DNA of 64,000 bases, taken from assembly GCF_037042905.1 (NCBI RefSeq), contig NC_087250.1, forward strand, positions 7,752,001 to 7,816,000, written 5' to 3'. Positions 5,281 through 63,221 of this stretch are shown piece after piece. A program made the translations under genes and the position numbers. Every line of letters begins with the position of its first letter. The first letter of the stretch is position 1. The notes under the pieces are model-generated. The model saw only the letters and a program-made list of their open reading frames with translations. It did no database searches and was not told the DNA's origin. This DNA is from Lytechinus pictus (Eukaryota).

Positions 5281-6046
5281 AGTAATTGTATTGCTAAAGT
5301 GTTTTTTTTAAGAGATGTGGGCTGCTTGTAATTGGTTATAATAATATATCTAAGCTTTGATTTTGAATTAGAAAACCACATTGATCCTGAAAAGTTTGAA
5401 TGATATAAAACATTTTCTATGTGTGTACGAGATTGTCAGATTTTCGCAAACCACTTTCGTCTTTTATTTTCTCACTGAACTTTATCTGGACATGTCTGTT
5501 AGTTTTACCCCTTCCAGGACACCATAGCTAAACTTCCGAAGGAAAGCGATAATATCTTCCCTATTTTCATGAGCAAAACTTGGGAAAGATAATGGTCCAT
5601 TTGGCACGTAATCTACCCCAAAAGGAAGTATTTCGTTAATAGGAAGTAGGACGAAAGACCGCATTTGATAAGCCCTGCATTGATTTATCAAATGGATTGA
5701 TTTTGTCAAAGAGGAAAATAAGTGAATTGAATTAAATAGAAAAAATGGTTTCGACAGAAAGAAACATGTTCTAATAATACAAAACATTTACAGCATGCTT
5801 AATATATGCTTTTTTTAGTGCACTATTTTGTGTTAAAACTAGGTAATTAAATGAAATGGGCATAATACATTTTGAAAATCATTAAAAAGTGAATTATGAA
5901 ACAACATCATCTTGTTTATTAAATGACCCCTTTGAAGTAATGTTTTAGTGGCCCAAAGATGGAGTGGTATGTACATGTATGCAGTGCTTTTGATATAACC
6001 ATACGGAGAAGGTGCTACGTCAAATGACTATTGGCTTGGATTAAAT

Positions 6047-6322
6047 TAATAATAATAATATAATAGCTGGATTTATAAAGCGCTTTTTGCCAGAGGATAC
6101 AAAGCGCTGCTATTATTACCCCTGCGTTAACTCGAGATACCATAATCGGCGCTCAGTGCGTGCAAGGAATTACTCCTGCCGGGTACCCATTCACCTCACC
6201 TGGGTCGAGTGCAGCACAGTGTGGATAAACTTCTTGCTGAAGGAAAACATGCCATGGCTACGATTCGAACCCACGACCCTCTGTTTCAAAGGCAAAGTCA
6301 GAACCACTCGACCACGACCATG
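6047..6322 (-). mobile_element. tRNA-derived SINE with CORE-like centre and L2-type tail
   Basis: Minus strand: A box TGGTCGAGTGG, B box GGTTCGAATCG, CCTTCAGCAAG...GACCCAGGTGAGGTGAATGGGTACC, then GCGCTTTATAAAT...(ATT)n tail. Partial copies near 2170-2265 and 12865-13065. Confidence 0.85.
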
Positions 6323-7427
6323 AAGCTTTGGTCATTCCCTTGTTGACCTTAAGGATTGCAATTATGATTCGAATTGTTGATCAACAAGTGTGTCTTGATA
6401 CAAGACTAGCACAGCCACAACTGATTACCTTCAGTGCATAAGGCCCAGTCGGGTACTTGAACCTTCATATTCGGATCAATTTCCTTGATCAAAGGGTTTG
6501 CACAGCAAACCACCCCTTCTCCTTGTGAAAGGGAGGTGGGGGGGGGGGTAGGATGAAAGCACAGACTAAAATTTGAAACTTTACAACTAATTCCATGTGT
6601 AGAAGGAAGACTAGTGTTGTTAGACAGAGTTTTTTTCTCAATAATTTTCTCAATAATTCAAATTAATCCATTTATAATTATGTATCTGAGTAATATTTCA
6701 CCCTATAATAATGTTATATTTTCTGTATTATGCATTCATATTGAAGATATTCTGTATATTTCCAACTTATCATTGATTACAATTCGTAATTACTTGTATA
6801 AACTTAACTTTTTTGTATTATCACCTGGTAATAATTACGATTATTATGTTTTATGTATTATTTATGTATATTAAGATTGGGTGCCTTTTACTTTGTAAAT
6901 CAGACTCTGTATCTGTTTGGGTTTTTTACCGTATGAAAATATAATTTATCTATCTATCTATCTATGTCAAACTCTCTGTGTACAGCCAGCCACAGTACAT
7001 AGTGAAACTAGTCTCAGTACTTCAGACTCTGCATTATGCACTAGGCAAATTGCGAAATCCAAAGGTCTGTGCTTGCAAGCCCAGGGGGGGGGGGGGGGGG
7101 GCTTCAAGTGTTCCGGAAAAAAAAGAGAAATATCGTCGGGCCCCATCTGTGTCAATATAACCATGACCTTTCCTGACCTTATTGCGAAGTCGGATAAAGA
7201 CAATATTTCCTCCCATTCAAGTCCTACAATGACAATGGCAGACTGGTTGACTCTGCAGAAACATTCATGTTTTATCTTCTTCTTTTTTTTATTTGTCATA
7301 AGGTAGACTGTACATTTTTTGACCTTCTATATAAGTTGAATGATGGCTTATCTCGAAGTATTATTATTTCAGACCAGAATATGCAAAACCAGTGTTCGTA
7401 TTGATCTTTTAAGTCTAAATAACGCTG

Positions 7428-14357: not shown

Positions 14358-15074
14358 AGAATTGTCATTCAGAATCATCAGATATTCAATGCTCAAAACT
14401 TATATGAATGTCCTTTTAAGAATGTTCTTTCTTTCCTTGAATTTGCTTTGAAGGTTGTGATAGTATCCAATGCCTCTATGAAGGGACTATCTGCTGCCTT
14501 ACGATTTCAATTGTGAATTTTTTTTTGACTGTGCAGCATATCGACAAATTTCAATTAGACCTTTTAATACAATTGTTGAATTGCCCATGGATCCAATCTT
14601 TTAGGAGTGATGATTTTTTTAGGGGGTTAAAATCTTCCTCTGGAAAATTCTTGATCTAAACAGTAGCCTATTTATGACTCTACCTACAGTGCTTAAATCA
14701 TTTTCTTTCACATAAATCCCTTTTGCCATTATTACTTCCTTAAAATGCACTGAAGTGGGTCAAGTATACTTAGTATATTGATGCCGCATGTGACAATATA
14801 ACAGATTTTTTTTCATATAGGAAGCAATGCCACAAAATTTTTGTTTGGGGATGTGTGTGTGTGTGTGTGTTAGGTTTGTGAAATGGCTCTTGGTCTAATC
14901 TCTATTTATGGACTTGTTCTTTTAGTTCTTATTTTAATCATTTGGTTCAATTGCAACATTTTGATGTCACATTATTTCATTTAGACTATTTGATAATAAG
15001 TATAATAATAATTAGCCACTTCAGTTAGGAAACTGCTCTATCAGCGGGCCCTGCATATTAAGATAATATGCTAT

Positions 15075-15213
15075 CATCACCATCTAAATGCTGAGGTGCC
15101 TAGCAAGAAGGCAGAAGTCCCAATATTTATAAGTCTTTGGTATGACTTGGTCAGGGATTGAAGCCATGACCTTTGATTCATGAGGCAGGCGCTCTTCCAC
15201 TGAGCCACCACGC
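15075..15213 (-). mobile_element. tRNA-derived SINE (5' part), related to 49244-49509
   Basis: Minus strand TGGCTCAGTGG A box, degenerate B box, then GTCATACCAAAGACTTATAAA central segment shared with the 49.3-kb SINE. Confidence 0.7.
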
Positions 15214-19490: not shown

Positions 19491-20595
19491 ATTTTCAAAG
19501 AATACTTGATGATGGATGGTGACATCGCGAGAGAATCCAGCGGCAACGATGATTTTGAAATCATCGGAGGCGATTCTCCCGGATGCAGCAAGTCCGACGG
19601 AGACGGTGTGGTGGTCTCAGTTGAGGTTGACATCATTGCTAACGGTGATGACCTGTCAGCCTCCAAGCAACTTGATGGCGAAGAGTCCTCAGAGGTGAAC
19701 GGTGTAGGCCAGGGAGGGGAGGAAGGTGAGATAACCCATGCAAGGATAGGACAGGGTGATGTTGATGACAAGCCTAAGCAATCTGCAGAGGAATTGATGG
19801 AGGAACTTGGCATCACTATGGAGAGTGGTGACCAGGAAGATGAGGAGAGTAAGGTTAGTCCAGATGCAGGGGAGGTCGTTGAGGAGGATCAGGTTTCAGC
19901 GACGACCATGAAGACAGAAGAAGCAAGCGTGTCGCTGGACACTCTTGCAAAAGAAGAGGAGGCTGAGCCCAAGACTGAGGCTGATGATGGAAGTCAGGAA
20001 AATGGTGTTTCCATTGAGGTAATGCCTGTTGGAAAGGTAGAAGACACTCCAGAAACGCTAGAAGACAGTACTCCAGAAACACCTGATGACTCTCCCGCAG
20101 ACACTGACGATGTCACAGAACCTACCCCTAGAGATGAAGTGCCTGAAGAAACTCCAGAAATACAAGAAGAAACTCCAGAAACACGAGAAGACAGTACTCC
20201 AGAAACACCAGAAGATTCTCCTGCAGATGCCGATGCTGTTTCTGAACCTTCCCCTGAAGAGGTCACTGAGGATGCCCCTCAAGAGGTTACAGAGGATACT
20301 CCCAAAGATGTTACTGAGGATAGTGCTAATGATCTCATAGTGGAAACTCCCAAAGACCTCGCTGAAGACATCCCCAAAGACATTCCAGATACGGAGGAAG
20401 ATACCAACCAGGACTCGGCCGTTGACGTGAATCTAGACACATCTCAAGACACGTCTCATGATATATCACAGGATATCAGTTTGGATGTTTCTCTAGACAA
20501 ACCACAGGAGCTTGGTGAGGATGCACCAGCTTCTCAGGATGATGACCAAACCCTGACAGAACAGAGCTTAGATGAATCCCTTAACTCTGAGGAAG
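19491..20595 (+). CDS. Exon of a large acidic, intrinsically disordered protein (probable start ATG at 19509 or 19512)
   Basis: Acceptor TTTTTTCATCTTTCTTCAG|ATT. Long open Asp/Glu-rich frame. Donor GAAG|GTAGGT leaves phase 1, which matches the next exon. Confidence 0.85.
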
Positions 20596-21666
20596 GTAGG
20601 TCACCACTTCCTTACAAATCTTTTCAGTCAAATGTTAGATAGTCATAAAATGTGACGAGACAGTCTTTTCCCCTTTTCAGCATAAATCCTGGAACCCTCT
20701 GCTAATGATGATCTTCCATACTTGTAGGTAAACTTGTCTATAAAGATCACCAAAGTGGTACAAGACAAATGGTCTTTGAGAGCAGGTGGTCTTACTGAAC
20801 GGGATCATGTTTTTGGTCTTTATAGACTGATGGTCTTTTTATACAGGTAGTCGAGGAAAGCAGGTTTGACTGCACACCGTTCATGAAATACACAAGATCT
20901 GAAGTGGTTGTGTTAATATTCTCACGATTTTATCCAAGATCATAATTGTTGTCATCTGTAACGGTTGATTGAGTTCTGGTTGGGTCATACAAATTGTTAG
21001 AGCTCATGGTGTAGCTCATTATACTTCAGTCACATTCGCTCTACGGCGGTCGTACTGCGACTCGAAAACAGCCGTTTTAACATTTATTGTACCAGCTACA
21101 AATAGGTGGTTTGAATGAAAATGTTTTTGACTTGCCGTACGACCGCTGTAGAGCAAATTTGATTGACGTATGAGTATTGGAAAAGTTTCATGGATTAATT
21201 TCTGATGGTCATACGATACTTGAAAAGATAACTCTACATTACATTACATTAATAACACCACGTAAGTAATATCAGATAAGATATCTGACCTAACGAATCT
21301 AAAGAATAGTATTTTACCTTAAAAGAATGTTACAACGTACTGTAGAACAATCTACAGGATTGGTCGTAACTTGTAGTAAACCTAACTGAAAGAAGACGTG
21401 TGAACATTATTTGTATCACCCTTCTCAGAACTCAATATTTCCTTTCAAGAAAACAAAACCTACATAGTACTTGAATACCAGTATCAACGCTGATATTTGA
21501 ACAAGGAAATGAAATACCATATCTCTGGTACGTGTAGTTGAATTTCAACGCTTGTGATATTTGATGAATGTTGTCCAGTCAAGACCGAAACTCGAGATCA
21601 TCTTAATGACCATTATACGGAGTGAAAGTGATGACAAATTTCTATGAATAGGAGTTTTACTTTCAG

Positions 21667-21713: not shown

Positions 21714-23699
21714 AAAGATACTAGGATGTTCATTGCAGAAGGTCATAAAAGCCCTGTTACACAAAGGTTGTAATCGATGTCGGATACAATCCTGATTGGT
21801 CATTGGGTGATTTCAAGTTCAGTGTTGACCTTCTGGTGTTGGTGTAAATGTAAATTTTTGCACGATTATACCACCAAATATAAGATGATCCCGAAAAGTC
21901 ATTCACTAGTTGTTGAGATGTCAATAAAGTGATCTGGATCACTTTTACAAAATCCGAATAAGTCTTGGAGCTAGGGGAAGCAATCCAACAAATTTTAACA
22001 CCCAACACCAAGGCCAACACCAGACTTGAAATCACTCAATGGTTAGTCTGTGAACAAAATGTGCATTCAACAATGATGTTGATTGGCCATGGCAAATTCT
22101 GTGATTGATTGCCCCTTCTGTGTAACAGTGCCCAAAACTTCTTTCCATCCGACCTTTATAATCATTTATTGATTACCCCCCCCCCCCCGTTTCAGTTGTG
22201 TTGGAATTTCTATTTTCATTATTGTTGGTGGCATGTTAGTCAAAGTTGTGCTTAGTTTAGTTTGGGAATTTATAGAAGATTTATTTTTAGTTTGTTTGCT
22301 AGTTTTAGTTGCAATATTTATACTTTGATTTCTGTTTTCATTCCTTCCCAAAATAAAATCTGCACTTAGCTTTTCTTTGGAAGGCATGGCAAGAGGCTGG
22401 TTGAAGAGGAGGACACAATAAAATGCATTTAAACTGCATCATTATAAACACATTCTGGTTGAATATAAAAACTTTTTTTTTAATTACCCTAACCCTGAAC
22501 TCCCCTCTTGATCAACATGTAGTGTAGCATTTCATATCCAGCCGCAGAGCTCATTTTTGGCCTTGATGAAGAAGAATAATTTACTTTATGTAAGTGCGTT
22601 TGAATGAACAATGAATGTTTGAAAACGCTTCTCAAAGGAAGCACAAAGACACCTACTCTCCTTCTACTTTGCCATGCCTTCATTTGCATAGATGGTCAAA
22701 TAATCTTTATGTTTCATTTTGCATTCAAACCCGCTTTATGTTCCTTTTGTCCCCATGATTTGTATTTTATGTTTCTTGTTACACAGTGTAAATGTTGTTT
22801 AAAATTTTATACAACGCTGTTTACTATAATATAGATAACAATGCTTAATTTATTTTGAATTATATTGAAAATTTAACTTTGTTATTTAAGAATGTAAACA
22901 CTTGTTTAAAACTTTTAAACAACTCCTGACACATTCATATTGTAAACAGTGATGTATACAAATTTTAAACAGCGATTTTACTCTGAATGTCCTTGTCTTT
23001 GTTTTGTCCTTTGTGTTTCCTGTTCAATGTCTTTAACACAAAAGTAACAAAGGGAAGTCAGTTAAGAGCTACTAACTTTAAAAGCTCATTTTGCCTCAAA
23101 GCAGCAGTAGAAGCGAAAGCTACATAAAATTTGCTGCTTTCTAGTTTTGTTATCCTTTCTATGCTGAATTATTATTTAAAAGTTTTATTTCTTTGGGCAT
23201 TGGGAAGAAATATGTGGAGAATGGGGTACACACTAAATCAAGATCGAATATTGAAAGGTTTGACACGCACTGGACTGGGGTCAACTGTAGGTCAATTTCA
23301 GTCTGTTTTATTCTTTGCCATATGTCATTATTAAGATAAATGAGGTCTGTTTCATGAAAGTTGTCTGCAATGACAAACTGTCTTTCTCCGACAGTTACCA
23401 TAGTAACAGTCAGAGGCCAGTGTTTCTGAGCCAATCAAAACCAAGGATTTGATTAAAATTGTCCGTGCTGACAACTCTCATGAAACACCCACAAGTTCTT
23501 GTGGTCTGTCATCGATCTTGTTGGGGTCCCATTGCCATCATCTGGGTGTGAAGAATCTTTCTTCCAGATGGGTTTGGAGGGTAAAGCCTTATCCCCTGGG
23601 AATTCAGATGTAGTCCTTTTGTGACTAGACCAAGTCTTTGTTGGGTCTGCTATAAGTAGCTGACCCTAGTGATAAGTTAACATGACATTGTTGTTACAG

Positions 23700-26600
23700 T
23701 GACTCCACAGCAAGGAGATGAAACTCAGAATGACCCAGATCCGGGGGAAGGGGAAGGAGAACCAACTGCTGCACCAACACCTGATGAACCAACAGGAGAA
23801 ACTGAAAAGGAAGTAGCAGAAGAAGAAACACCAGCAGAAGAAGTGCCAGCTGAACAAGAAACACCACCTGAAGAAGAAACACCAGAACAAGCACCAGCTG
23901 AAGTAGAGACCCAAGCTGGAGAAGAGACACAAGCTGAAAAAGAAACACAAGCTGAAGAAGCAACTCCAGCTGAAGAAGAGACACCTGCTGACGAGACACC
24001 AGCTGAAGAAGAAACACAAGCTGAAGAAGCAACACCAGCTAAGGAAGATACACCAGTCGAAGAACCAACATCAGCTGAAGAAGAGACACAAACTGAAGAA
24101 GAGACACCAGCTGAGGAACCAACACCACCTGTGCAAGAAAAACCAGCTGAAGAAGAGACACCAGCTGAGGATTCACCAGCTGAAGAAGCAACACCAGCTG
24201 AAGAAGAAACACAAGCTGAAGAAGAGACAAAAGCTGAAGAAGAGACGCAAACTGAAGAAGAGACACAAACTGAAGAAGCAACACCAGCTGTGGAAGAAAC
24301 GCCAGCTGAAGAAGAAACACCGTCTGAAGAGACACCTGCTGAAGAGACACCAGCTGAAGAAGAATCACAAACTGAAGAAGAGACACAAACTGGAGAACCA
24401 ACACCAGCAGTGGAAGAAACACCCGCTGAAGAAGAAACACCGGCTGAAGAGACACCAGCTGAAGAAGAAACACAAGCTGAAGAAGAGACACAAACTGAAG
24501 AACCAACACCAGCAGTGGAAGAAACATCCGCTACAGAAGAAACACCGGCTGAAAAGACACCTGCTGAAGAGACACCAGCTGAAGAAGAAACACAAGCTGA
24601 AGAAGAGACACAAACTGAAGAACTAACACCAGCAGTGGAAGAAACACCCGCTCAAGAAGAAACACCGGCTGAAGAGACACCTGCTGAAGAGACACCAGCT
24701 GAAGAAGAAACACAAGCTGAAGAAGAGACACAAACTGAAGAACTAACACCAGCAGTGGAAGAAACACCCGCTCAAGAAGAAACACCGGCTGAAGAGACAC
24801 CTGCTGAAGAGACACCAGCTGAACAAGCAACATTGACTGAAGAAGAAACGCAAGCTGAAGAAGCAACACCGGCTGACGAAGAGAAACCATCTGAAGAAGA
24901 GACACAAACTGAAGAGGAAACACCAGCTGTGGAAGAAACGCCCACTGAAGATGGAACACCGGCTGAAGAGACACCTGCTGAAGAGACACCAGCTGAAGAA
25001 GAAACACAAGCTGAAGTAGAGACACAAACTGAAGAACCAACACCAGCAGTGAAAGAAACACCGGCTGAAGAAGAAACACCCGCTGAAGAAGGAACACTGG
25101 CTGAAGAGACACCTGCTGAAGAGACACCAGCTGAAGAAGAAACACAAGCGGAAGAAGAGACACAAACTGAAGAACCAACACCAGCAGTGGAAGAAATTCC
25201 CGCTGAAAAAGAAACACCCGCTGAAGAAGAAACACAAGCTGAAGAAGAGACACAAACTGAAGAAGTAACACCAGCTGTGGAAGAAGCACCTGCTGAAGAA
25301 GAAACACCAGCTGAAGAGACACCTGCTGAACTAGCAACACTGGCTGAAGAAGAAACGCAAGCTGAAGAAGCAACACCGGCTGACGAAGAGAAACCATCTG
25401 AAGAAGAGACACTGGCTGAAGAACCAACACCAGCTGTGGAAGAAACACCCATTGCAGCAGAGACACTGGCTGAAGAAGCAACACCAGCTGGAGAAGAAAC
25501 ACAAGCTGGAGAAGAAACACAAGCTGAAGAAGCACCACCAGCTGAAGAAGAGACACAAGCTGGAGAAGCCACATCAGCTGAAGTAGAGACACCAGCTGAA
25601 GAACCAACACCAGCTGCAGAACCAACACCAGCTGAAGAAGAGACACTGGCTGAAGAAGAAATACAAGATGAAGAACCAACACCACCTGTGGAAGAAACAC
25701 CGGCTGAAGAAGAGACACAGGCTGAAGAAGAGACACAACCTGAAGAAGAGACACAACCTGAAGAAGATAAAACTGCTGTACAAGAGACACCAGCTGAAGA
25801 AGAAACACATGCTGAAAAAGAGACACCAGCTGAAGAAGAAACACCTGCTGAAGAAGAATCAAATTCTGAGGAAGTGGTTGAGAAGAGGGTGTCTGCCTCA
25901 GACTTGGTTGAAGAGTTTGGACTGACATTAGATGAGGGTGATCAGAGTGTATCTGTATTTGGTCAGGAAACTGAAAACAAATCTGGTGATGAAATGGTGG
26001 AAGAAGAAAAAGTTGTTCCAACGACACAAAATCCAGAGGAAGCAGATATCAGATTAGACTTTTTATGTAGCACAGAGGAAGCTGAAGTTACAGAGAAAGG
26101 TGCTGAGGAAATTGAAACAGAGGATGTTGTGGATGGGGTAAATATAGATGAAGTAGCAAGTACATTGGATGTCTCTCCCACAGGAGATGAGGGTGTTTCA
26201 ACAGAACAATCAGAAGAAGTTGATGCCAGTGAAGGAAAAGAAGCTGTGAAAGATGCAGAAGAAGAGTCATCACCTGTAACCCAGGAGGCTGATAATGTAG
26301 TAGAGGAAGTATCAGACAATGTGCCAGCAGCTGTTGAGACCGAGGTAGAAAAATTGAGCAAGGAAACAAAAGAGACAGAGGAGAAAGAGGATGAGACAGT
26401 GGAGGGATTACCCAAGGAAGCACCAGAAATTATTGTCACTAGTGAAGAGGCTATTGTGGATGAAGAAGCTGGTGATGATGAAGTGAAAGAGGATACTAAC
26501 CAGGCAGCTGAGGAAATGGCCACAGAAGAACAGGAGGTGGTGGAAGAGTCAGTGAGGGAAGAAATCACAAGGGATGTTGAAGCATGTCCTGAAGATTCAC

Positions 26601-27593
26601 CAGATGACGGGGACAAAGCAGTTAGTGAAGAAGTAGTGGAGGGTGATTCAGAACAAGTAGAAGTTATTGTTGCAGAAGCCGAACAAGCAAAAGAGGAAAT
26701 TATTCAGGCAACAGAGGAATCAGCCACAGAGGAACATGAGGTGGTTGAAGAGCCAGTGAGGGAAGAACTCACGGAAGATGTTGAAGCATGTCCTGAAGAT
26801 TCACCAGATGATGGGGACAAAGCAGTTAGTGAAGAAGTAGTGGAGGATGACTCAGAACAAGTAGAAGTTCTTCATGATGAAGCAGAACAAGCAGAAGAGG
26901 AAACAGTAAATGATGATGTGTGCCAAGATGCCTCTGAGGATACAAGTGATGAGGCAGTTACTGAAGAGGTGAAAGTGACAGACACAGAAGAAGCCACTGA
27001 GATACCATCACCTGAAAAAGAAGCTGTTACAGAAGTTGTTGAAGAAACTGTTGTGGATACTGTTGAACTGGAAACGGAAGCCACATTATCACAAGACATA
27101 GAGAAGGAAGTGGTTATTGATACAGACATTGCAACAGAGAATGTTGAAATTGAAGAGTCTACAGAGGAAACGGAGCAAGATGTTCCAGAGGAGGCAGACC
27201 AAGCGGTGGTAGAACAGGAAGCGGTAGAAGAAAAGACTGAGGAGGTGAGCCAGACTGAAGTAATAAAACAAGAGGTTGGAACGGAAACAGAACAGCTGCC
27301 ACCGTCAGAAGAAAGTGAAGAGGTGGCTGAAGTGATCCCTGTGGAACCCCAAGAAGAACTGAAGGAGGAATCTACTGAGGAGCCACAGACTGAAGAGCCA
27401 AAGACAGAATCAGTGGAAGAAACCAAAGAAGTACCAGAAGAGCCTGTTGAGGAACCTCCAAAGGACACACCAGTCAATGGTGTTTCTGAGGATACTGTCT
27501 TCAATGGGGTGCTTCTTAATGGACATGATGGTGGTCATCTTACCAATGGACATCATGTATCTGAAGACGACCACTTGACCAATGGTGATGAAG
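23700..27593 (+). CDS. Giant symmetric (phase 1-1, 3894 nt) exon encoding a Glu/Thr/Pro/Ala-rich repeat region
   Basis: Acceptor TTGTTGTTACAG|TG completes G|TG from the previous exon. 1298 codons without a stop. Donor GAAG|GTGAGT. Confidence 0.9.
23815..25860 (+). repeat. Coding minisatellite: 15/18-nt units (AEEETP/AEEETQ/AEETP) with a 120-bp higher-order repeat
   Basis: 24541-24660 and 24661-24780 are near-identical. Frame is preserved throughout. Confidence 0.95.
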
Positions 27594-29684
27594 GTGAGTC
27601 TGGAGGTTTTGTTTTTATTGAAAATGAGCTAGTCTGGTTTTTTCAATTGTGAGATGAAATTCAGCTTCGTAATTAATAAACAGAGAACCAGGACAATGGT
27701 ACATGCCCCCACCCCCCCAAAAAAAAGTATGAAAGATAGGAAAAAGGATATTTACAAACACTTTCTAGTTCGCCTTCTGTTAATGTTGTAAATAGAACAG
27801 TTCAAAGTGAAAATATCATTTTTTTAGAGAGAAAATTTGTTGAAAATCCTGATATTTGGTAGAGGTTACAAATATTTTTCTTTGTTTTGTTTTTTGAGGG
27901 GTGAGGTGATGAACCAAATAGCAGCTCACATTCGGAAAGCCAGACTAGCCACAATGTACAGATAAGATATCGATCTTAGATACTGCTCCAAATGAAACAA
28001 ATAATTCATATTAAATTGGTCGTTCCAAAATCACTTAAGCTCTTGCCTCTTGAGGAATTTAGTTAAAGATTTGTAATATGGGTTTCTAGTATCTCCCTTC
28101 CTCCTGGTATGTGATGTGTATTATACCTTCCCTCTATCATTAATTTCCATCCTTGTTTCACTCGATGCCTCATTCGTTCGTTCAATCATCAAAACCATAC
28201 CCCCCATGCAACGTGTTGCATGCATAGACTAGGACTTAGGATTGTATGACTCAGTTAGTTTCCTTATAAACGATCATTATCGTAGGCATGCCCATATGCT
28301 AAATCATAGTTGTTCCTTGCAAAACTTGCCAATAATATATCTTTGAAGAATGAAATAGATAGATCTCCCTTTTTTCCTGAGTTTAGAGGCATGTCTCCTG
28401 TAGACCAGATTTATATAGTCTCAGAAAAAGTAGACCATATCTATATAGTCTCGGCAAAATTAGACCAGATTCATATAGCTTTCAGAAAAAAAGTAGACCA
28501 AGTCTAGCAACTAATAGCTAATTTTGAATCATGACGATAAACCCCTCCCCCAATATTACAGTATTGTGAATAACCATTATCCACAAGACGCTTGATTTTT
28601 ATCTTTTGAATATATTAATTTTTTAACTTTTTCCTTGTACTCTTCCTAATTCAAACAATTTTTGGCAAATACAAAGTTTTAAATGCAATAGAATAAATCT
28701 ATATTAAAGCACTGTTTTTTGTGAATTCCATGCAAAAAAAAAATGATATAGATGTTCTTATAATGATCTCATAATGTTTTGTTTCGAGATTTTTTTTAAT
28801 GACTTTTTACAAAAAGTCAGTTGAGAAGACTTAAGAACTCGATCCACTTTACAAATTTATTAACGGTACTATGGTAGTGTATAGGAAAATTTGAACCTTA
28901 ATGCCCATCTGTATTTACCGTCATACTGAATCATTACAGGATATATAGTTTGGAGGAAATATGATGTAATTAAGGAAAACAGCTGATATGAATAGATACC
29001 CGGATAACCCAGATTCTTAATAATTCATGTCCATTTACCATGTGGTAATGATGTTTTTAATTATGTTATTTGTCAGTTCATGTATGTTTTGTTGGGGTGG
29101 AATTCATCATTTATTGATACATATGGGAGAGGGGGGAGTTAACGCTCTTCAAACTTTCCTGTGAAAAAAACCTACATGTTACGTCATCGAATTTCATACC
29201 AAAATCCGACAATTTTTGTGCGAAACTACACTCTCAGCATTTCTTGAAAAACCTGTAATATTAATTCTTATTATCTTACTATGAATAAAATCAAATTGAG
29301 TATGCTTGGTTGTTTTTTTGTAGCACACCATTTTCAGCTATGCTACTTGTAGTATCAATACTACCATATATTTGCAACAATAAATGGCTTTTATGAGATA
29401 GATGTATCTAGAATTTAGTTGCGCAAACTTTGAGCAAGAATATTTGGAAAGTGTTAACTCTCTCCAAGATGTCTGTAATTTGGTGTTTCATGGTATGGTT
29501 ATGTTCACACGGTCAACTAACATGGGTATGTTGTTTTGTTTTTCTTGTTTCTAACCCGTCCTTTTCCCCATCCGTCATTGTATTCACCCCATATCAACAT
29601 TGCCCCTCCTCCCGACCACTCCCATCACCCCCACGTCATTTAATGGAACAACCCACCCCTATGTCATGTAATGGAACGACCCAG

Positions 29685-33049: not shown

Positions 33050-33286
33050 TCATATAATAAAATACAAAAGAACAAGTGGGGATATGACATCATCAGCCCA
33101 CCTAATGAATATTCATAAAGACTAGAACTAGTCTAGTCTAGAACTGTTTCACCGGAATAAAGCAAATCTTTAAAATTAAATAACTTTGTTATTTGTTATC
33201 CGGTTTTGATCAAATTTTCAGCATTTTGCTCTGTGAAATTTTCTCTATTTATTGAGATATATATGTTTCCAGCCTGGACCACCCCT
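33050..33286. mobile_element. Right end of a Kolobok-like MITE
   Basis: Ends ...GGACCACCCCT|TTAA. The subterminal ATCCGGTTTTGATCAAATTTTCAGCA resembles 56070-56100. Confidence 0.6.
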
Positions 33287-34569
33287 TTAAGCATCACCAT
33301 CTGAAACGACTTGAACATCAGACCTTGAAACTCTGCATAAATTTTGCAAACTCCCCCATGTAGCTTGAATTACAGGTGCACACCCCAGTGCCGAGTTTTG
33401 CTTTCAATTAAAAAGTTTTACAAACTTGATATTTGTTGACATGTATGAACTGGGGAAATCCCCTTTGATACCACATCAAATTCTTTCCATTGTAGAATTA
33501 CATTTTATCCCACTTTTTTATTACTATTTTCAATGGGTAAGAAATGATGCATGGCAAACTCTTGTCAGCATACAATCTGTTTATTGCAGTCATGAAAATA
33601 GTCTGCAAAAACAGACCTTTGGTTTCCATATACTGCATAATGCAGGGTCTGAAATAGGAGACTAGATTCACTCATGTTCTACTGTGGCTGCTTGTTTGAC
33701 ATAGCATGGACATGGACATAGGTCCATGGACACAGACACAGAGTTTGGGGTCTGCTAGTCTCCACACCAGACATGGTATTAGTTGTTAGTGTTAAATTAG
33801 AGTCTGTGCTAGAAGACTAGTCATGATACTAGTTTATCCCCTCAAATCATGGTATATTAGAAATGTATCCCTGCTGAAGCATGACACCTCATGGAATAGT
33901 CATTACTATGTCATCACCATGTCGTTAGTTTCTTTGATCATTATTCAGTGCATTCACACTGCAAAAATCTCCGCTTTTATGCAGGAATCTTCTTGCTACA
34001 TGGTGTAGAAGCCCTATACCATAAAAACATTGAATGGTTGCGTTTTTTGTCAGTCTGAATGCCACAAAGAAACACATTTTTTTACATATTGTACAATGCA
34101 TGATTTAGTATCACTTCAGAGATAATCAAGGTGAAAAATTGTGAGTCCTACATGTAGTCTCCTAGTGCAGAAACATGGTTCTGGAGCAAACATGTTTAAC
34201 CATTGCACAAATTTGCGCAATTAATGAAGGCTTTCGAACCCTACATGTATAACCAAAACATGATTGCATGTACTTCATCTCAAGCGTGCCCTGAAATGCA
34301 TTTTGATCGGCAATTTTATACCAGCGTAAAGTTGATAAATTCAGCCATAGTGAAAAATTACTCTGCCCAAGATATGACACACTAATTCAAGATTATTGAT
34401 TGCTAGTCATGGGTTTCTACTTGATTTTACCACAGCTGAAGGCTTGATTAATGTTGAGGAAATGGCTAAGGCTTTCATGATATGATTTCTTGTGAGATAT
34501 TCTCCTGCTGTATTAATAGATGCTGGTTGATATTCTCTGTAGACCTGTAAATCCTCAAATTATTAGACA

Positions 34570-35047: not shown

Positions 35048-35570
35048 TATATGTATTTGAAGAGTCTCAGGGATCCCATTCTCGTCTACTTCCTTAAATT
35101 AGTTGAGTGGAAACCAGTTAACATGTAAAGGAACGCTCAAAGCGTTCCTAAAAGCAACCGAAAGTGGTCTTCCTAAAACTAGGGTAGTTTGGAAAACCAC
35201 CTCATGATTTGATTTTCAAGACAAAAAGCAATCGAAATTGGTCTTCCCAAAACTAGGGTAGTTTGGAAAACCACCTACATCTTGGTGTGATTTTCAAGAC
35301 TGCTATGCCTTGGTGAAATAGTTTAAATGTAGGTGAGGACACAACCGTTTTTCGGGGAGCGATCTCCGCACAGAAGTACACGAGTGTGAGCATGCTACGT
35401 GCGCTACTCTGTACACACTTCTTGACCAAGTGAAACTACTATTATCAACTGTTATTAGATTTGGTATAGTGACGGGTTGTGCATGTAGAAATCAATCTTG
35501 TTTTGAGAACTGATAGTGCTCTGCTGCCCTCTTGTGCTGTAATACCATATAGTTGCCCAGGCAGAGTGTG

Positions 35571-35749
35571 TGTGTGTATTTGAGTTTTGTCAGACGTGTA
35601 TCAATCAGATATGATTATTTACATCTGGGACCGACTTTTAACGTCACCATCCGAAAGACGTGACCAGGGCTCGAACCCTGAACCTCTGCATCAATTTGTA
35701 ACTTCCCCACACAGCTTGGATTACAGGCGCACGCCACAACGCCCAGTTT
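35571..35749 (-). mobile_element. 7SL(SRP)-RNA-derived SINE, copy 1
   Basis: Minus strand begins CTGGGCGTTGTGGCGTGCGCCTGTAATCCAAGCT (7SL Alu-domain-like). B box GGTTCGAGCCC and (CA)n tail. Perfect 11-bp TSD GGCAGAGTGTG (35560-35570, 35750-35760). Confidence 0.85.
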
Positions 35750-35803
35750 GGCAGAGTGTGCTATTACATACCAAATTTGAATGAGAAAAAAGGGGGTATT
35801 AAA

Positions 35804-37806: not shown

Positions 37807-38997
37807 TTAGTTTCTCTTGTTCTAGTCTCGCATCCTCCGTCGCCTCAGCAACTCTCCATAGACCCGTTGAAACCCTGTCTCCATTCCGTTCACATCTCGG
37901 CTGGGCCTTCTCACAGGAATCCATGGCAATGACTCACCGAGACGTGATTGGAAACCGGCTCGCAAGGGAGATGGGTCAGTCACAAGCAATAACCACGTGG
38001 AAATGGAAAATCCATTACACTGTAAAGTGTAAAAATACTGCTTAAAATTTGAACAAGTTGCTTATAATCCCGTCACTTTAACAACTTTTGTTCAAATGTT
38101 TAAGCAACTAGTTTAATCTTTTTAAACGAGCCTGTCACTTTATCAAATGTTGTTCACAATTTTAAGGAATTGTTTCATCTTTTTTTCAAACAACTTAGTA
38201 TAGTAGTAGTAGTTGTAGCAGTAGATGTCAGGAATCGTCTCCCCCCATACTTTCATAGACATAACCAGAAGCCTCGCACCTAGCAAGCCCCTGCACCTCA
38301 AAGAAAGGGGTGGATAATTTTGCAGAAAAAAATAATGGAAAGTGTCCAATTTACCATCGAACTAGTTCCTTTCCAATGTGGAAGTGATTGGTCCAATTTG
38401 GATTTTTGCTTTAAATTAGATCAAAAAATTAGTACAAGCTTTAAAATGTGAATGCGGCGGGGGGGGGGGGGGTGTTCCCCAAGAAGGATGAAGGGGGGTC
38501 ATATTCGCCTGGGACAACAGTCACAACACATGCATTTCAGTGTAGTTGCCCCCCCCCCCATATTTATAGCCCTATCAAAACCAAGAAGCATGTATTTTTA
38601 TTCACTTTTTCTTATCTGTATGTCCTTTTGTCTTGTCCCTATTCAATTAAAATACACTTTTTCTTATCTGTATGTCCTTTTGTCTTGTCCCTATTCAATT
38701 TTGACAATTATGTTTGTATTTCTTAGAATTTTATTTAAATATCCGAGCTGTAAAATAGTTATATAGAAAGAACACTGAGGCATGGAACACCCCTTCATCA
38801 TAACCCACCAGTCTGAGCCACAACTCAAGAGAACAATAGCCAAGTGCTTGTATTGTGTTGCATGGTGGAAAGTCATTGAGAATTGATCAATACCAGTCTG
38901 GCTAGGACAAAAGGGGAGTTTCCAAATCAACATATCAACTTCTCGGGCATGACATCTTTAGTCTACTTAAGGAGACCCTTTGAAATTAAGAAATGAC

Positions 38998-39052
38998 TTC
39001 TACAAATACTACTACTACGACGACTACTACGACTACTATTACGACTACTACG

Positions 39053-39113
<61 letters not shown>

Positions 39114-39270
39114 TACTACTACTATACTACTACTGCTACTAATACTATTTTTACTGTACTACTACTTCTACTACTACTACTTCTACTAGTAATACTACTA
39201 CTACTACTACTAAGTACTTATAATAATAGTTATAATGATAACATTACTACTACTACTACTATTACAGTCT
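38998..39270. repeat. (CTA)n microsatellite
   Basis: Direct trinucleotide periodicity. Confidence 0.95.
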
Positions 39271-42096: not shown

Positions 42097-44637
42097 GTAG
42101 GTTATCACCTAAGTTCTAACTTTTTTATAATAAGATTTTTAAAGATTTTGTAGAGTAGTGTTTTAAAATATTAATTTTCAAATGGCAATGTACATACTCT
42201 ACACCACTCATTCAATGAACAAGGTTATGATATAACCTTGTTCTCAGTTATATCTCCATGTGTGGCAAAATAAGGATGGCAATGTTTGGCTTATTTTCTC
42301 TTTTTCTTTGGGAAAAATGCTTGATTTTTTTACACTGACAGTTTCCATCACAGTTATTCGTCATACAACTTGGCCCTTAAGTAAATTTGATTCTTTAAAT
42401 TATTTTTTCTTAATTAAAAATAGAGATTAAAAAATGAAAATTTTCTTGCCATATTATTTTCTATCAATAGAGGGCGTACACAAAAATATGCCCAAAATTC
42501 ACGTTTTTGAGCGCTCTAGTGAATACAAAAATTATTCCCAAGTTACTGATGAAAAATAAATTGCAACTGTATCGAAATTAGTAATTTTGGTCACAAAAGT
42601 GATATTTTAATCATTTTTTAAAGTGTGTGCTGTGTACAGCATTGGCATGCCATAGTCCTACCTGTAGATTCTCCACAGGCAGGATGGTTGCAGTGAACAA
42701 GTGCTCTACACCAGACCTACCAGATGTATAGTACATGTACAATAACACCAGTTGGTGGACTGTACTTTATCAGAAGAAGAAGAAAAGTTTGGATCTGATA
42801 TTTTTGGATGATGGGCCCCTTGCCATCTTAGTTATGGTAACCTAAAACCTGTCGCAGATGGTTGCATTTTAAGCTGCATATTATTGCATTAGCTGAGAAG
42901 ACCATTACCCAGCCTAACGCAGTATACTATTCGGTATTCGGGTGCAATCACACTTTTGCCTACGAGCTCATCAGGGATCGTACAGAGTTGCATGCATTAG
43001 AATGAAGTGATACAAGCTAAAGTGAGACAATTTAAGGTAAATCGAGCACTAACGCTGTAAAAATGCCTGCGTAAGCCGCTCGTTGCTTGTTCTTGCACAT
43101 CCTTTGCTCCTTCCCATTCGTCTTTGCTCGTATGAATTTTGGTTGCGTTCAGATGTGGATGTTTGAAAAAATACAAACTACCAAGCTCAAACCCAATACC
43201 TCTGCGAAATGACCTTGTATTACATGTAGCTTGTTTCATTGTGTTTGTTTTGCGTTCAACAAAGTTTGTCTGCGTTCAGGCAGTCTGCAGCTGAACGCAA
43301 GCCATAACGCAAAGGCACGAGCCAGGCTATTAGCCTACTGTACAATTGTCATATTGTACAATTTATAAAGCCCAGATCTTGATGCAGAGCCCTATTGGGC
43401 ACAAAAAATCATTAGTAATTTTTTTTTATATTGGTATTGTATGTTAGCTGATTTCTGTACATTCATTTGTTGGTTATGAGTAAATTTTAAAAAAATTTCA
43501 TAGTACCTTGAGGCCACAAATAGACATTGCCTGTGAATCCGTGAATAAAGATAATCAATTATAAGGCAAATATAAATGTATTCCTATTTGCTACTACTTC
43601 GCAGTTTGAGTTAGCTTTGACATTTTAATCGCTTGGTATTTTGGAAAGGTCACAACACTCAGGTTAAATGTTATGTCAGACAATGTCAATATGCCTTGTT
43701 GTTGTCTTATGAGTACAGATTGGTTTGATCAAACAATACTTAACATACATGAAGGATGTTTAGTGAGGGGGCTGGTTACGTACTGCTAGACTCTGTAGAG
43801 GAGAGATGGCTGTGTTTTTAATAAGCCGAAATTTGTTCAAGCCAGGAAAAAAATGACACGGGGGCTCGGGGTGATTTACCCCTCAAAATGCTCAAAAGGG
43901 CCCTGGAAAATCTAAAAAGACTGCTGGAAAATCCCCATTCGCTGCGATGTAAAACTTACCAAATGTTTCAGACAATAGGCAGGAGGTTGAAAAAGTAGCC
44001 CCTGAAAAAAAAAATTGTCTGGTTCTAGCTTACAGTCTGTTCACTGCCCTTGGCACAAAGAAATAAACAGATATTTTACTTTCACAGTGCACCCGGTCTA
44101 AATAATTTATTGTCGTTATATGAACTTCATAAACTTTATAAACTTTCTCCACTCCTTGGGGAGCATCCCAACACTTTCGTTTCCAAACGATTTACACAGT
44201 AAAAACGCTGTTTGAAATTTTATGCAGTGCTGTCTACTACATGAACCTTATAGTACATGTATACCCCTTTCATAAACCTAACCTCCAATTAGCCGCCTAA
44301 TAGTAATGCAGATAATTCAATAAAAATTGCGTTCACAAACTCCGAAAATTATCCGCATTATTTTTACGAGCGCCCGTCCTGAAAAAGGCGGATAATCGTC
44401 ATGACAACTGGACACGCCCCCTCCGATGCGTTTGTGTTGGAAAAGGGTGACCTTGTGACCGCACCATGGCAATTATCCGCATTATTTTTATGCAAAATCT
44501 ATTAAATTAACTTTATTGCCATTATATAATCTTTATAAACTTTTTGGACTTTTTCCACTCCTTGGGGAGCATCCCAACACTTGAGTTTCCAAACTCAATT
44601 TGCTAGGCATTCTACATAGGCTTTCACATCCTACCAG

Positions 44638-48298: not shown

Positions 48299-48403
48299 TA
48301 CTACTATACTACTACTGCCACTATATTATTACTACTTCGAAGTTCTACTTCTACTTCTTCTAATACTACCACCACCACCACCACCACCACCACCACCACC
48401 ACC

Positions 48404-48447
<44 letters not shown>

Positions 48448-48477
48448 ACTACTACTACTACACCACTACTACTACTA

Positions 48478-48527
<50 letters not shown>

Positions 48528-48537
48528 TTACTAAGGT

Positions 48538-48584
<47 letters not shown>

Positions 48585-48645
48585 TTTACTAAGGTCTTCT
48601 ACTACTACCACCACTACTACTACTAGTCTACTGCTACTTCTTCTT

Positions 48646-48676
<31 letters not shown>

Positions 48677-48689
48677 ACTACTACTTCTA

Positions 48690-48727
<38 letters not shown>

Positions 48728-48805
48728 TTACTAAGGTCTACTACTACTACCACTACTACTACTAGTCTACTGCTACTTCTACTACTACTACTACTACTAC
48801 TACTG

Positions 48806-48853
<48 letters not shown>

Positions 48854-48940
48854 TTACTACTGCTACTACTACTACTACTACTCAGTACTACTACTATTAC
48901 TACTACTATTACTACTACTACAACTGCTGCTGCTGCTACT
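48299..48940. repeat. (CTA)n/(CCA)n compound microsatellite
   Basis: Direct periodicity. Confidence 0.95.
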
Positions 48941-49171: not shown

Positions 49172-49669
49172 GGTTCCATGACATTTACTCCGGCGACAAT
49201 TGCTCCGGCGACAATTTCTCCGATGGAAAATATGCATGTACATACCGGTGTGTTGGCTCAGTTGGTAGAGCGTCCGTCTCACAACCGGGAGGTCGGGGGT
49301 TCAAACCCCGACGGCGTCAGACCAAAAGACGTTAAAAGATGGAAGTTGCTGCTACCCTGTTTGGCGATCAATGATTAAATGGATAGATCATCGTCGATCT
49401 GGCGCTGCACAGCGGCTGCCTGGCCCACGATCAATTGGGCAAAGCAAATTTTCGGAGTATTTCATTTCATGTCTATTTCGAACAATGAAATATGGAATTT
49501 CATCATCATGTTAAGCCAAACATAAAATCTAACCTCCAAATCTAAATAAACCCTTATCATTATTGCATTATTCTGAACCAAAAACTCTAATGCAATCCAA
49601 ACTCGAACCCGACGCCCTCTGAGATATCAGGATCGGAGCAAATGTCCCAGGAGCAAATGTCATGTCACT
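49172..49669. mobile_element. MITE with 8-bp TSD, hosting a SINE
   Basis: GTTTTAAG|GGTTCCATGACATTT...AAATGTCATGTCACT|GTTTTAAG. Confidence 0.8.
49244..49509 (+). mobile_element. tRNA-derived SINE
   Basis: A box TGGCTCAGTTGG (49254-49265), B box GGTTCAAACCC (49298-49308), tRNA-unrelated body, (CAT)n end. Confidence 0.85.
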
Positions 49670-50541: not shown

Positions 50542-50991
50542 GAGCGAAGTTGGCTCAGTCGGTAAAGTGTCTGCCCGTCTAACCAAAGATCGTGGGTTCG
50601 AGTCCACCCCGCGCGGATGACCGAAGCCAGTGCGTTGTGTGTAAACGTCTCTCCCCTGTTTCATAGATGCTGGCTATGTTAAAAATGTGGAAAATACTCC
50701 GTCCCTCGGATAGGACGTTAAATGGAGGCCCCGTGTAGAGGAGAGTCACCACCTTTGCACGTTAAGAAACCACTGCACTATTTGAATAAGAGTAGGGGGA
50801 AACCCTGGTGCAGTGGTCCACCTGCAGTCCCCCAAGCAGTTATATCGGGAGGAGTGACCTGCGGGTCACATTTCTGTGTGTGCGCCCTTCTAGGCGACTC
50901 AGATTGGCTTGCTCCTCCAAAAATGCGCCTTTGAATGTCTTTGACAGATACATGGCGATATACAAATGCTGTGCATCATCATCATCATCAT
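50542..50991 (+). mobile_element. DeuSINE-type tRNA SINE
   Basis: A box TGGCTCAGTCGG and B box GGTTCGAGTCC. Central CCGTCCCTCGGATAGGACGTTAAATGGAGGCCCCG...GCACTATTTGAATAAGAGTAGGGG resembles the Deu domain as I recall it. L2-like tail ending (CAT)n. Confidence 0.85.
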
Positions 50992-51434
50992 CTGTATTCC
51001 AGACCTCGCCTTGTCGGTGCAGGAACGCCCATAGCATCACACTTCCGCGCACCCTATCGGTGCAGAAAACCCTTGTGCGAAACTAAGGACGTTTCTGCGC
51101 ACATGCAATGCGCGAAAGTATGGTACTATGGGTGCTCCTGCAACAACACAACGATTTCAATGCGCGCGGTCAGTCAAAACGTTGTATTGCTCTGTTACAG
51201 TACATGTTTCCAATGGGATTTGCACATTTTATTAAAAAAATGTATGGCATCGCCGTGAAAAATCCTCTTATATCTCAGAAAATAGAATAAATTGCTGCCT
51301 ACAAATTTAGTTACGAATAGAGTAGGACTTGTACTTTAATTTTCTGCAAAAATCTCAAAATAATTTTTTTTTTGGACCAAAATTGACTGATACAACGGTT
51401 CGGATGACCGCCGACGAAATATGCAAAAAGAGAT

Positions 51435-51610
51435 GTGTGTGTGTGTGTATTTGAGTTTTGTCAGACGTGTATCAATCAGATATGATTATTTACGTCTGGG
51501 ACCGACCTTTAACGTCACCATCCGAAAGACGTGACCAGGGCTCGAACCTCTGCATCAATTTGTAACTTCCCCACATAGCTTGGATTACAGGCGCACGCCA
51601 CAACGCCCAG
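51435..51610 (-). mobile_element. 7SL(SRP)-RNA-derived SINE, copy 2
   Basis: Differs from copy 1 by 3 substitutions and a 7-bp indel. (CA)n tail. Possible 6-bp TSD AGAGAT (51429-51434, 51620-51625). Confidence 0.85.
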
Positions 51611-52493
51611 AGAACTTTGAGAGATTAGGCTTTTCCAAGGCTTTTGCCTCTTCAGGGTGATCCTCCACCGAGGATCCGATCTGCAGAATCACTTAGAGCA
51701 TTTAAAAAAAATATATTTTACATCACATCTGTTTTCATCTTATTTTTATGCAATATTGAAGCTAATTTGATCAGTTCATGCATCCAAACATCAAAACATC
51801 TGTAATTCCTAAGCTCCTCCCCCATTCTTGCTGCGCCTCGAATTATTTCACTAGATAGATGGTGCATAATTAATGCTGTATTCATTTATCCGTTCAGACA
51901 ATTTGTATCCATAAATAAATTCTTATAGTTTGCCATATATATGTTTTTTATTCATATTTTGTTCGTAACAGTCTTGCATATTGAGATGGTGTTTAAACTT
52001 CTGCTCGTAGTAATTAATGACATTTTTTCGTTGACCCCCACCCCCCTCCAATGTTAAAATATTCTACATAACACTCTTTGCAGTACGAATGATATAGTAG
52101 TTGTTTAACAGTTTAAATAAGATGTTAAAATCTTAAATGCAAAAGTGTAATTTTTGGTAAATTAAGCATGGTTGTTAAAACCCTTAAAATTACTACTGTA
52201 GATTTCATATAGTAAACAGCATCTAAAATTTTTAACATAATTTTTACTTAATTAACAATCTTGTCTGGATACTCGATATTCATTTTATACTCGAAATTGC
52301 TTCTTTATACCGTACTTCATGACACATTTTTACCTGAGGGATCAGGCGGGTTATTATCAGAGGAAAGGTATAATTACTACAGCAAGAAAAGCTGACATGC
52401 AAGTTCAAAAGGTCAATCATTAAAGCACATGGACAGGTCCAACATTTCAGCCGAATATAGTCTTTTCAGACCTCCTGAGTCATTGGATGTTAA

Positions 52494-62020: not shown

Positions 62021-62091
62021 GCTGCTACTACTACTACTACTACTTCTACTACTACTACGCACTACTGCTACTACTTCTACTACTACTACTT

Positions 62092-62128
<37 letters not shown>

Positions 62129-62142
62129 TTCTACTTCTACTT

Positions 62143-62224
<82 letters not shown>

Positions 62225-62421
62225 GCACTACTGCTACTACTTCTACTACTACTACTACTACTACTTCTACTACTACTACTACTACTTCTACTTCTACTAC
62301 TACTTCTACTACTACTACGCACTACTGCTACTACTTCTACTACTACTACTACTACTACTACGCACTACTGCTACTACTTCTACTACTACTACTTCTACTA
62401 CTACTACTACTACTTCTACTT

Positions 62422-62464
<43 letters not shown>

Positions 62465-62478
62465 TTCTACTTCTACTT

Positions 62479-62518
<40 letters not shown>

Positions 62519-62602
62519 TACTACTACTACTACTACTACTACGCACTACTGCTACTACTTCTACTACTACTACTTCTACTACTACTACTACTACTTCTAC
62601 TT

Positions 62603-62639
<37 letters not shown>

Positions 62640-62893
62640 TTCTACTTCTACTACTACTACTACTACTTCTACTACTACTACTACTACTACTACGCACTAC
62701 TGCTACTACTTCTACTACTACTACTTCTACTACTACTACTACTACTTCTACTTCTACTACTACTACTACTACTACTACCACTACTACCACTACTACTATA
62801 CTATTCCCATACTACTACTACTATATTACCACCATTGCTGCTGCTACTACTACTACTGGGCAATTCCATAAATTATGTACGTACTACTACTTC
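62021..62893. repeat. Long (CTA/CTT)n microsatellite with a recurring TACGCACTACTGC subunit
   Basis: Direct periodicity. Explains the poly-Y/L/T ORFs. Confidence 0.95.
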
Positions 62894-62952: not shown

Positions 62953-63221
62953 AAAATGAGGGCTACCGTGCCGGTCTCACGCGGAGCAAATCCAACCGCC
63001 TCGATTCTTCCAAATTTTCAAAGTTTGAATCCTCTCCGAACTCCTCGGGCAGTGAGTCCTCGTCAGGGAGCAAACGGCACACGTTCACCGGCGCGGGCCG
63101 CCTCAACATGTCCCGATTCTCGCAGTTTGAGAAGGGGTCAGATAGTTCCGACGGCGGATCGCAACCGATCAAGAGAAACGCCGGAACTCGATCCAGGAGT
63201 CTCAAGTTCGGTTCCGGAAGT
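62953..63221 (+). CDS. Downstream exon of the same gene: (E)NEGYRAGLTRSKSNRLDSSKFSKFE...RLNMSRFSQFEK...RSRSLKFGSGS
   Basis: Acceptor TTTGTTTTTGCAG|AA (phase 1, G|AA=Glu). GC-rich coding-like composition. Donor AGT|GTAAGT (phase 0). Confidence 0.85.

Follow-up and report, generated by a model that had tools for sequence, protein, structure and literature searches.

A short interspersed element with a 7SL-like 5′ domain and a Deu-like segment in the sea urchin Lytechinus pictus

Introduction

SINEs derived from 7SL RNA are called exceptional in the available text of PMC13023118 (Kosushkin 2026). The hosts of such elements named there are supraprimates, hagfish and shrew mole only, and all of the elements keep both 7SL ends. 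A stretch of 64,000 nucleotides from Lytechinus pictus (the window) carries, at 51435 to 51611 on the minus strand, an element of 177 bp, tail included, which starts with a much shorter piece of 7SL. This raises the question of what the element is composed of and how it could have spread. Its layout also bears on why Alu-type SINEs have retained 7SL, whether as a promoter or for the binding of SRP9/14.

The element consists of a 7SL-like 5′ domain with its helices, a piece from the 5′ end of a Deu domain and a 3′ stem-loop; copies are dispersed, and one of them has a clear TSD. An earlier note on this DNA had described it as the second copy of a young SINE in which a 7SL Alu domain replaced the tRNA head of a Deu-type SINE, mobilised by a LINE ending in (CA)n.

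Results and Discussion

Copies and age

A self-search of the window aligned the element (copy 2) over 181 columns with a copy at 35566 to 35747 (copy 1), both on the minus strand. The two differ at 3 of 174 aligned bases, each difference being a transition (35623/51494, 35636/51507 and 35712/51576), and copy 1 represents a long form with 7 bp at 35673 to 35679 that are absent from copy 2. The first base of the head is also unequal in the alignment. The near-identity reported earlier, with three substitutions and a 7-bp indel beside the B box, is borne out by this comparison. The self-search also found a third copy, about 75% identical near 33284 to 33395, which had been overlooked. This old copy covers about 33231 to 33396 on the minus strand, with a recognisable 7SL head, middle and Deu piece, and a candidate 7-bp TSD at 33224–33230 and 33396–33402. 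It differs from copy 1 in 33 of 136 columns (24% diverged), and 7 of its 8 CpG sites are now TG or CA, with no CG left. Because a copy of this divergence already has both the 7SL head and the Deu piece, the 7SL–Deu fusion predates the recent burst. The youth claimed for the family holds for copies 1 and 2, but the design itself is older.

The 3′ end of the old copy shows no significant match to the young tail (268 of 2000 shuffles scored as high); either a swap or a loss of the tail may lie behind this. The copy (33231–33396, minus strand) could represent an older subfamily with a different tail. A (CA)9 tract at 14853 to 14870 was rejected as its tail partner since the shared 11-nt word is insignificant (399 of 2000 shuffles).

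In size and dispersal the element agrees with the definition in the available text of SINEBase (PMC3531059), the three copies being dispersed, non-tandem, about 170–180 bp long and surrounded by unrelated flanks. The identity of at least 60% to tRNA, 5S or 7SL RNA over at least 60 nt, also given in that text, is not reached. The 7SL match extends over just about 45–47 nt (32 of 45 positions without gaps), and it exceeds 60 nt only if the tRNA-like part is added. The young copies possess the combination of TSD and simple-repeat tail that is general among SINEs, the TSD of copy 2 being a weaker candidate.

Target sites and tail

The tails of the young copies are (CA)6–7, that of copy 2 being a (CA)7 at 51435 to 51448 (minus strand). 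Annealing of the tail to the target during target-primed reverse transcription predicts that TSD and tail overlap. This is what copy 1 shows: its 11-bp TSD, located at 35560 to 35570 on the tail side and at 35750 to 35760 on the head side, has 5 nt in common with the tail. For copy 2 there is a candidate TSD of 6 bp (51429 to 51434 on the tail side, 51620 to 51625 on the head side) with a chance expectation of about 2%, a tail overlap of 1 nt and 8–9 extra bases between TSD and head. The proposal of tail–target annealing is accordingly upheld by copy 1, one of the two young copies only.

There is no T4 run within the element. A T5 run lies just past the tail of copy 2, at 51425 to 51429 (minus strand), where the flanking DNA may provide a Pol III terminator. 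It would end a Pol III transcript near the natural 3′ end, and copy 2 is a possible source copy. Downstream of copy 1 no T4 run was found in about 265 bp.

The 7SL-derived head

The head of copy 2 lies at 51565 to 51611 (minus strand) and corresponds to nt 1–47 of 7SL RNA, which make up the closed 5′ Alu domain with the A-box region. The Rfam model Metazoa_SRP matches both young copies solely at model positions 1–44, with E values of 2.5e-4 (23 bits) for copy 2 and 6e-6 (28 bits) for copy 1, scores that lie below the Rfam gathering score of 70. Two 7SL references were used, L001 and L005, which are full-length genes from unknown animals with 270 and 280 (279.6) bits and not the host 7SL. Copy 1 agrees with L005 in 29 of 36 positions from the start and in 24 of 25 over nt 11–35, with a local score of 48 where the maximum of 2000 shuffles was 32; the old copy reached 36 against a shuffle maximum of 33. 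The Rfam match and the L005 alignment confirm the 7SL-derived 5′ end that had been proposed, which is the hallmark of SINE1-class elements and is judged here against a non-host 7SL. After nt 45 the identity of the copies to L005 drops to background, and the body gave no match to the remainder of 7SL past about nt 47 (1566 of 2000 shuffles as high).

The Alu domain's secondary structure is largely retained in copy 1. For helix 3, the loop pairs and the turn motif we use what we take to be the pair numbering of the Alu domain. All six tested pairs of helix 3 hold and one further pair is broken, the turn motif at 23–25 is unchanged, and of the loop–loop pairs 14–34 and 15–33 are Watson–Crick whereas 13–37 is a wobble. 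The closing helix (1–47, 2–46, 3–45) and helix 4 have Watson–Crick pairs in six of six cases, assuming that two extra bases are placed in loop 4. Two closing pairs are changed on both sides relative to L005, and the changes are common to the old copy. Since the comparison was made with a non-host 7SL only, these compensatory changes may be those of the host 7SL and are unassignable to selection on the SINE.

According to the available text of PMC4238359, the contacts of SRP9/14 lie in the turn and in helices 3 and 4, with SRP9 also touching helix 5. Helix 5 is absent from the SINE head. Judged from the bases in its helices, turn motif and loop pairs, the head would be compatible with SRP9/14 binding. 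For the element as a whole, the predicted fold is no more stable than those of shuffles (z 0.18), and in it the Alu domain is partly opened.

The middle segment and the B box

Between the head and the Deu piece lies a middle segment (51532 to 51564, minus strand) that probably represents the 3′ half of a head derived from tRNA and is 7 bp shorter than in copy 1. It contains a tRNA-type B box at 51538 to 51548 (minus strand), assigned on what we take to be the motif consensus, which is intact despite the adjoining loss of 7 bp. Its register was examined with a position matrix built from four tRNA-derived SINE heads of the window, excluding the anchor; a fifth head, near 43200, was left out of the training set for want of an anchor. 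Outside the anchor copy 1 gave a p value of 0.0004. It ranked first after three training heads among 54 B-box-like motifs, and so was the best of the 51 that were not used for training. The sequences on both sides of its B box fit tRNA-SINE heads (upstream p 0.02, downstream p 0.0003). Copy 2 ranked sixth, the old copy failed the test (p 0.61), and the Rfam tRNA model had no match to the middle segment at E values up to 10. We have moderate confidence that the middle segment would be a tRNA 3′ half. The earlier suggestion that the tRNA head was swapped for 7SL is supported as to the 7SL 5′ end but not as to a whole swap, the B box in tRNA register indicating that probably half of the head was replaced.

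The distance from head to Deu piece is 92 nt in copy 1, 91 nt in the old copy and 85 nt in copy 2, a spacing that makes loss of the 7 bp from copy 2 the probable cause of the indel. Comparison of the 13 nt behind the indel anchor did not separate the long from the short form (9 versus 8 identical).

The Deu-like segment

The segment at 51498 to 51531 (minus strand) resembles the first 35 nt or so of a Deu domain, the part known as Inv or the 5′ part of Nin. A neighbouring tRNA-headed SINE at 50545 to 50992 (plus strand), of a different family and with a (CAT)n tail, carries a long Deu domain from about 50699. In the comparison of 51498–51531 with 50700–50732 of this neighbour, 25 of 34 columns agree and only 1 of 2000 shuffles scored as high; the likeness pointed out in the earlier note is real. 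For a comparison outside the window AmnSINE1 can be used, presumably an example of the 5S-headed Deu-SINEs. Against the Deu start of AmnSINE1_HS, as displayed in Fig S4 of Kojima 2020 (PMC7245038, available in part), 29 of 38 columns agree by eye, and the Deu domain of the neighbouring SINE was itself identified by eye against that figure. The domain spans 131–142 nt there. The rest of it is absent from our element, whose tail part scores 14 against the remainder of the neighbouring SINE.

Inv is the 5′ part of Nin, and Nin is part of Deu (PMC5804259), so the match of about 35 nt has the size of an Inv piece. It was recognised by its match to the Deu start and is a candidate Inv domain. DeuSINEs are recognised by a Deu domain of about 130–140 nt, of which only the first 35 nt or so match here. 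The designation as a Deu-type SINE is therefore appropriate for a Deu-related core, but not for a full DeuSINE, as about 35 of about 130–140 nt are present.

The neighbouring SINE (50545–50992) lies 440 bp from copy 2, and the window contains at least four SINE designs. Two tRNA-headed SINEs at 49247–49420 (plus strand) and about 15020–15210 (minus strand) are related to each other (score 84, shuffle maximum 46). A further tRNA-headed SINE, at about 6040–6325 (minus strand), has an AT-rich tail and a body that looks CORE-like to us. The bodies of the 49247–49420 and 15020–15210 elements resemble by eye the Meta domain consensus of Fig S4 in the available part of PMC7245038.

The 3′ stem-loop and a possible partner LINE

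A stem-loop with a 7-bp outer and a 6-bp inner stem is located at 51462 to 51498 (minus strand), and is a candidate recognition signal for a LINE. In this region, which was picked after inspection, z is −4.9 for copy 2 (0 of 500 shuffles) and −3.4 for copy 1 (3 of 500), with pair probabilities of 0.88–1.0. One substitution falls within the stem-loop and gives a G–U pair in copy 1. This strong signal agrees with the second stem-loop before the (CA)n tail described in the earlier note. A GTCAC/GTGAC stem had been suggested as well. It forms in context, with a pair probability of about 0.75 at 4 of 5 pairs, but its segment does not exceed shuffles in stability (z +0.6 and +0.1).

No LINE was found within the window: among the listed ORFs (264, each 55 aa or longer), 260 gave no reverse transcriptase or endonuclease family, and the two young copies are the only places where the last 60 nt of the element occur.

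Proposed origin and mobilisation

The reading that we favour, and hold to be fairly probable, is that, in a tRNA SINE whose body begins with the Deu start, the 5′ half of the head gave way to about 47 nt of 7SL, and that the product has a hybrid promoter, binds SRP9/14 and is mobilised by a LINE. In this sequence of events the 5′ 47 nt or so of 7SL RNA would have taken the place of the 5′ half of a tRNA-derived SINE head. RNA polymerase III would then read a hybrid promoter, with the A box coming from 7SL and the B box from tRNA. The 47-nt head of the transcript may fold as a closed Alu 5′ domain and bind SRP9/14, which could bring the SINE RNA to ribosomes that are making the LINE protein. 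There the LINE reverse transcriptase would recognise the 3′ stem-loop and prime on the (CA)n at a nicked target. Copy 2 is a recent insertion from which 7 bp, located between a pair of short direct repeats next to the B box, were probably deleted.

Several other explanations should be considered. A segmental duplication could have produced two copies that are near-identical, lie 16 kb apart and have the same strand. Alignment of the 500-bp flanks of copies 1 and 2 gave scores of 22 and 26, with shuffle means of 24 and 27, and 162 and 124 of 200 shuffles equalled or beat them. As the flanks align no better than shuffles, duplication is ruled out; each copy, moreover, has its own TSD candidate. 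The insertions are independent, as had been claimed, and we give a duplicated origin practically no weight. The 7SL likeness could also be due to chance, to contamination with human Alu or to an assembly chimera, given that the match is short and that the same head bases weakly match the Alu-derived microRNA model mir-1268 (E 0.03). The L005 score was, however, reached by none of 2000 shuffles, the three copies are dispersed with one decayed at 7 of 8 CpG sites, and the body is Deu-like rather than Alu. At least half of 14 sampled words are present in 14 of 24 listed sequencing runs, all from one organism, 9 of which are marked as possible sources. The other five of these 14 runs, which come from two studies and are not marked as a possible source, hold 13 or all 14 of the words, which argues against an assembly artefact. 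These observations make an origin by chance or contamination very improbable.

Two alternatives concern the head itself. It could be 7SL throughout, up to about nt 85, with a B box that evolved in place as in Alu and a tRNA likeness that is due to chance. The B box is indeed found some 70 nt into the element, not far from 7SL position 76–86 (PMC7245038); the comparison was made with a non-host 7SL, there is no Rfam tRNA match, and the old copy fails the register test. Such a head is nevertheless improbable in view of the background identity to L005 after nt 45 and of the way in which copy 1 fits tRNA-SINE heads both before and after its B box. The main rival accepts the same origin but assigns the 7SL piece no other role than that of A-box donor or 5′ stabiliser, recognition by the LINE depending on the 3′ stem-loop alone. 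It is favoured by the strong LINE-type stem-loop, by the broken helix 3 pair in copy 1 and by the fact that most SINEs move without 7SL, and in the available text of PMC4758252 5S rRNA took over the promoter role in some Deu-SINEs. What it leaves unexplained is that the retained piece stops at the end of the closed 5′ domain (nt 47), some 30 nt beyond the A box, and that helices and turn motif were kept. We consider this rival rather unlikely, though the most serious of those discussed, and prefer the reading in which the head also serves SRP9/14 binding.

Comparison with known SINEs

The closest layout is that of SINE1-1_EBu from the hagfish Eptatretus burgeri (Kojima 2020, PMC7245038). There too a 7SL head precedes the rear part of an older tRNA SINE, and the hagfish element likewise is young, independent of Alu and provided with a simple-repeat tail that is not poly(A). 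It differs in its length of 282 bp, in 7SL nt 1–96 followed by a 3′ piece that brings a B box of its own, and in an end made up of a bipartite RTE tail and (AAC)n. The urchin SINE, in contrast, has about 180 bp, 7SL nt 1–47 only, a tRNA-type B box, the Deu-5′ piece and (CA)n. Identity of the two was rejected, as by eye the SINE1-1_EBu consensus shares the 7SL start only and the 282-bp length and RTE/(AAC)n end are not found in the urchin element.

Alu, FLAM and B1 of Euarchontoglires and, according to the available text of PMC13023118, Urop of the shrew mole likewise have the 7SL Alu 5′ domain at their start. In these SINEs both 7SL ends are retained and a central part is deleted (regions 1–63, 76–83 and 267–299 remain; PMC7245038), the tail is poly(A) and L1 is used, none of which holds for the urchin SINE. 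The layout shared by Alu, B1, Urop and SINE1-1_EBu, with both 7SL ends and a 7SL B box, is not present in it, and its tail is (CA)n instead of the poly(A) of Alu, B1 and Urop. It is a real SINE, SINE1-like, that in layout is neither an Alu, a SINE1-1_EBu nor a DeuSINE.

The head finds its counterpart in the engineered elements SA46 and AY46, which contain the same 5′ 46 nt or so of 7SL (Moldovan, Yin, Moran 2025, PMC12199147). In the available text of that study nt 1–46 bind SRP9/14 and, with no B box, give about 86% of Alu retrotransposition, the domain being necessary and sufficient for SRP9/14 binding and for mobility in HeLa cells. The constructs are artificial, with a CMV promoter and poly(A), unlike the urchin SINE. 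The minimal piece is argued in the same text to have failed in nature because it has no B box and hence no internal promoter; the urchin SINE supplies the B box that SA46 and AY46 lack. It may represent an independent, invertebrate Alu-like SINE, a natural form of the 46-nt minimal Alu domain with a B box from a tRNA half and a LINE that reads stem-loop and (CA)n. We put forward this wider interpretation tentatively, as it falls a little short of an even chance.

Other elements offer partial parallels. In the 5S-headed Deu-SINEs (Nishihara 2006, as cited in the available text of PMC4758252) a new Pol III RNA likewise was placed before a tRNA head of which part was lost, and the same text mentions mollusc SINEs with (CA)n tails and an unidentified LINE (Matetovici 2016). 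In the Tu SINEs of tree shrews the leftmost unit stems from both 7SL and tRNA (PMC13023118), a possible precedent for the urchin hybrid; they differ in being mammalian, multimeric and L1-dependent. In Inv, Nin and Deu SINEs such as the sea urchin SINE2-3_SP (PMC5804259) the Deu 5′ start directly follows the head, as it does here, but SINE2-3_SP has a tRNA head and a Nin domain, of which the urchin 7SL SINE has the first 35 nt or so only.

Among the papers listed by searches of the full-text literature, none dealt with a 7SL SINE in an echinoderm or another invertebrate. In that literature a sea-urchin family of 7SL SINEs would be the first outside the vertebrates. With a B box that apparently came from elsewhere and exactly the protein-binding domain retained, the promoter and SRP9/14 roles of 7SL would have been separated by nature. 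If the wider interpretation is true, hijacking of ribosomes through SRP9/14 would be a transferable module, of benefit to SINEs in different phyla and with different types of LINE. In a model sea urchin, the young copies could also be of use as markers of insertion.

Other scans and features of the window

Scans with an element pattern gave no loci in viral contigs and 0 and 6 loci in metagenome contigs, with no further copies among them. Of the 6 loci, all of which were dismissed, four were 7SL genes or parts of them, another was Alu-like and the last was a bacterial match due to chance. L001, L002, L003 and L005 are animal 7SL genes or fragments in metagenome contigs and represent several distinct loci, L002 being cut at about nt 180. 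In the window, ARAGORN found no tRNA gene, weak Rfam matches to snoRNA and other models (E 1–10) were taken as chance, and sub-threshold Pfam matches to Na_Ca_ex and CENP-P as noise.

Two long and very acidic open frames, at 19491–20639 and 23681–27649 (plus strand), encode about 380 and 1320 aa and are probably exons of one gene; the 23681–27649 frame contains an 18-bp repeat array. They matched no Pfam family, homologue or Atlas entry. DDFEII- and GFVFI-type motifs in these frames recall, in our view, LC3-binding sites. An exon at 62955–63221 (plus strand) encodes a protein like LIM-domain-containing protein 2, identical to a Lytechinus variegatus protein at 81 of 89 positions, which on its own already points to that species or a near relative as the host. 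Three long degenerate (TAC/CTA)n arrays of 217–833 bp are located at 38996–39212, 48299–48940 and 62025–62857.
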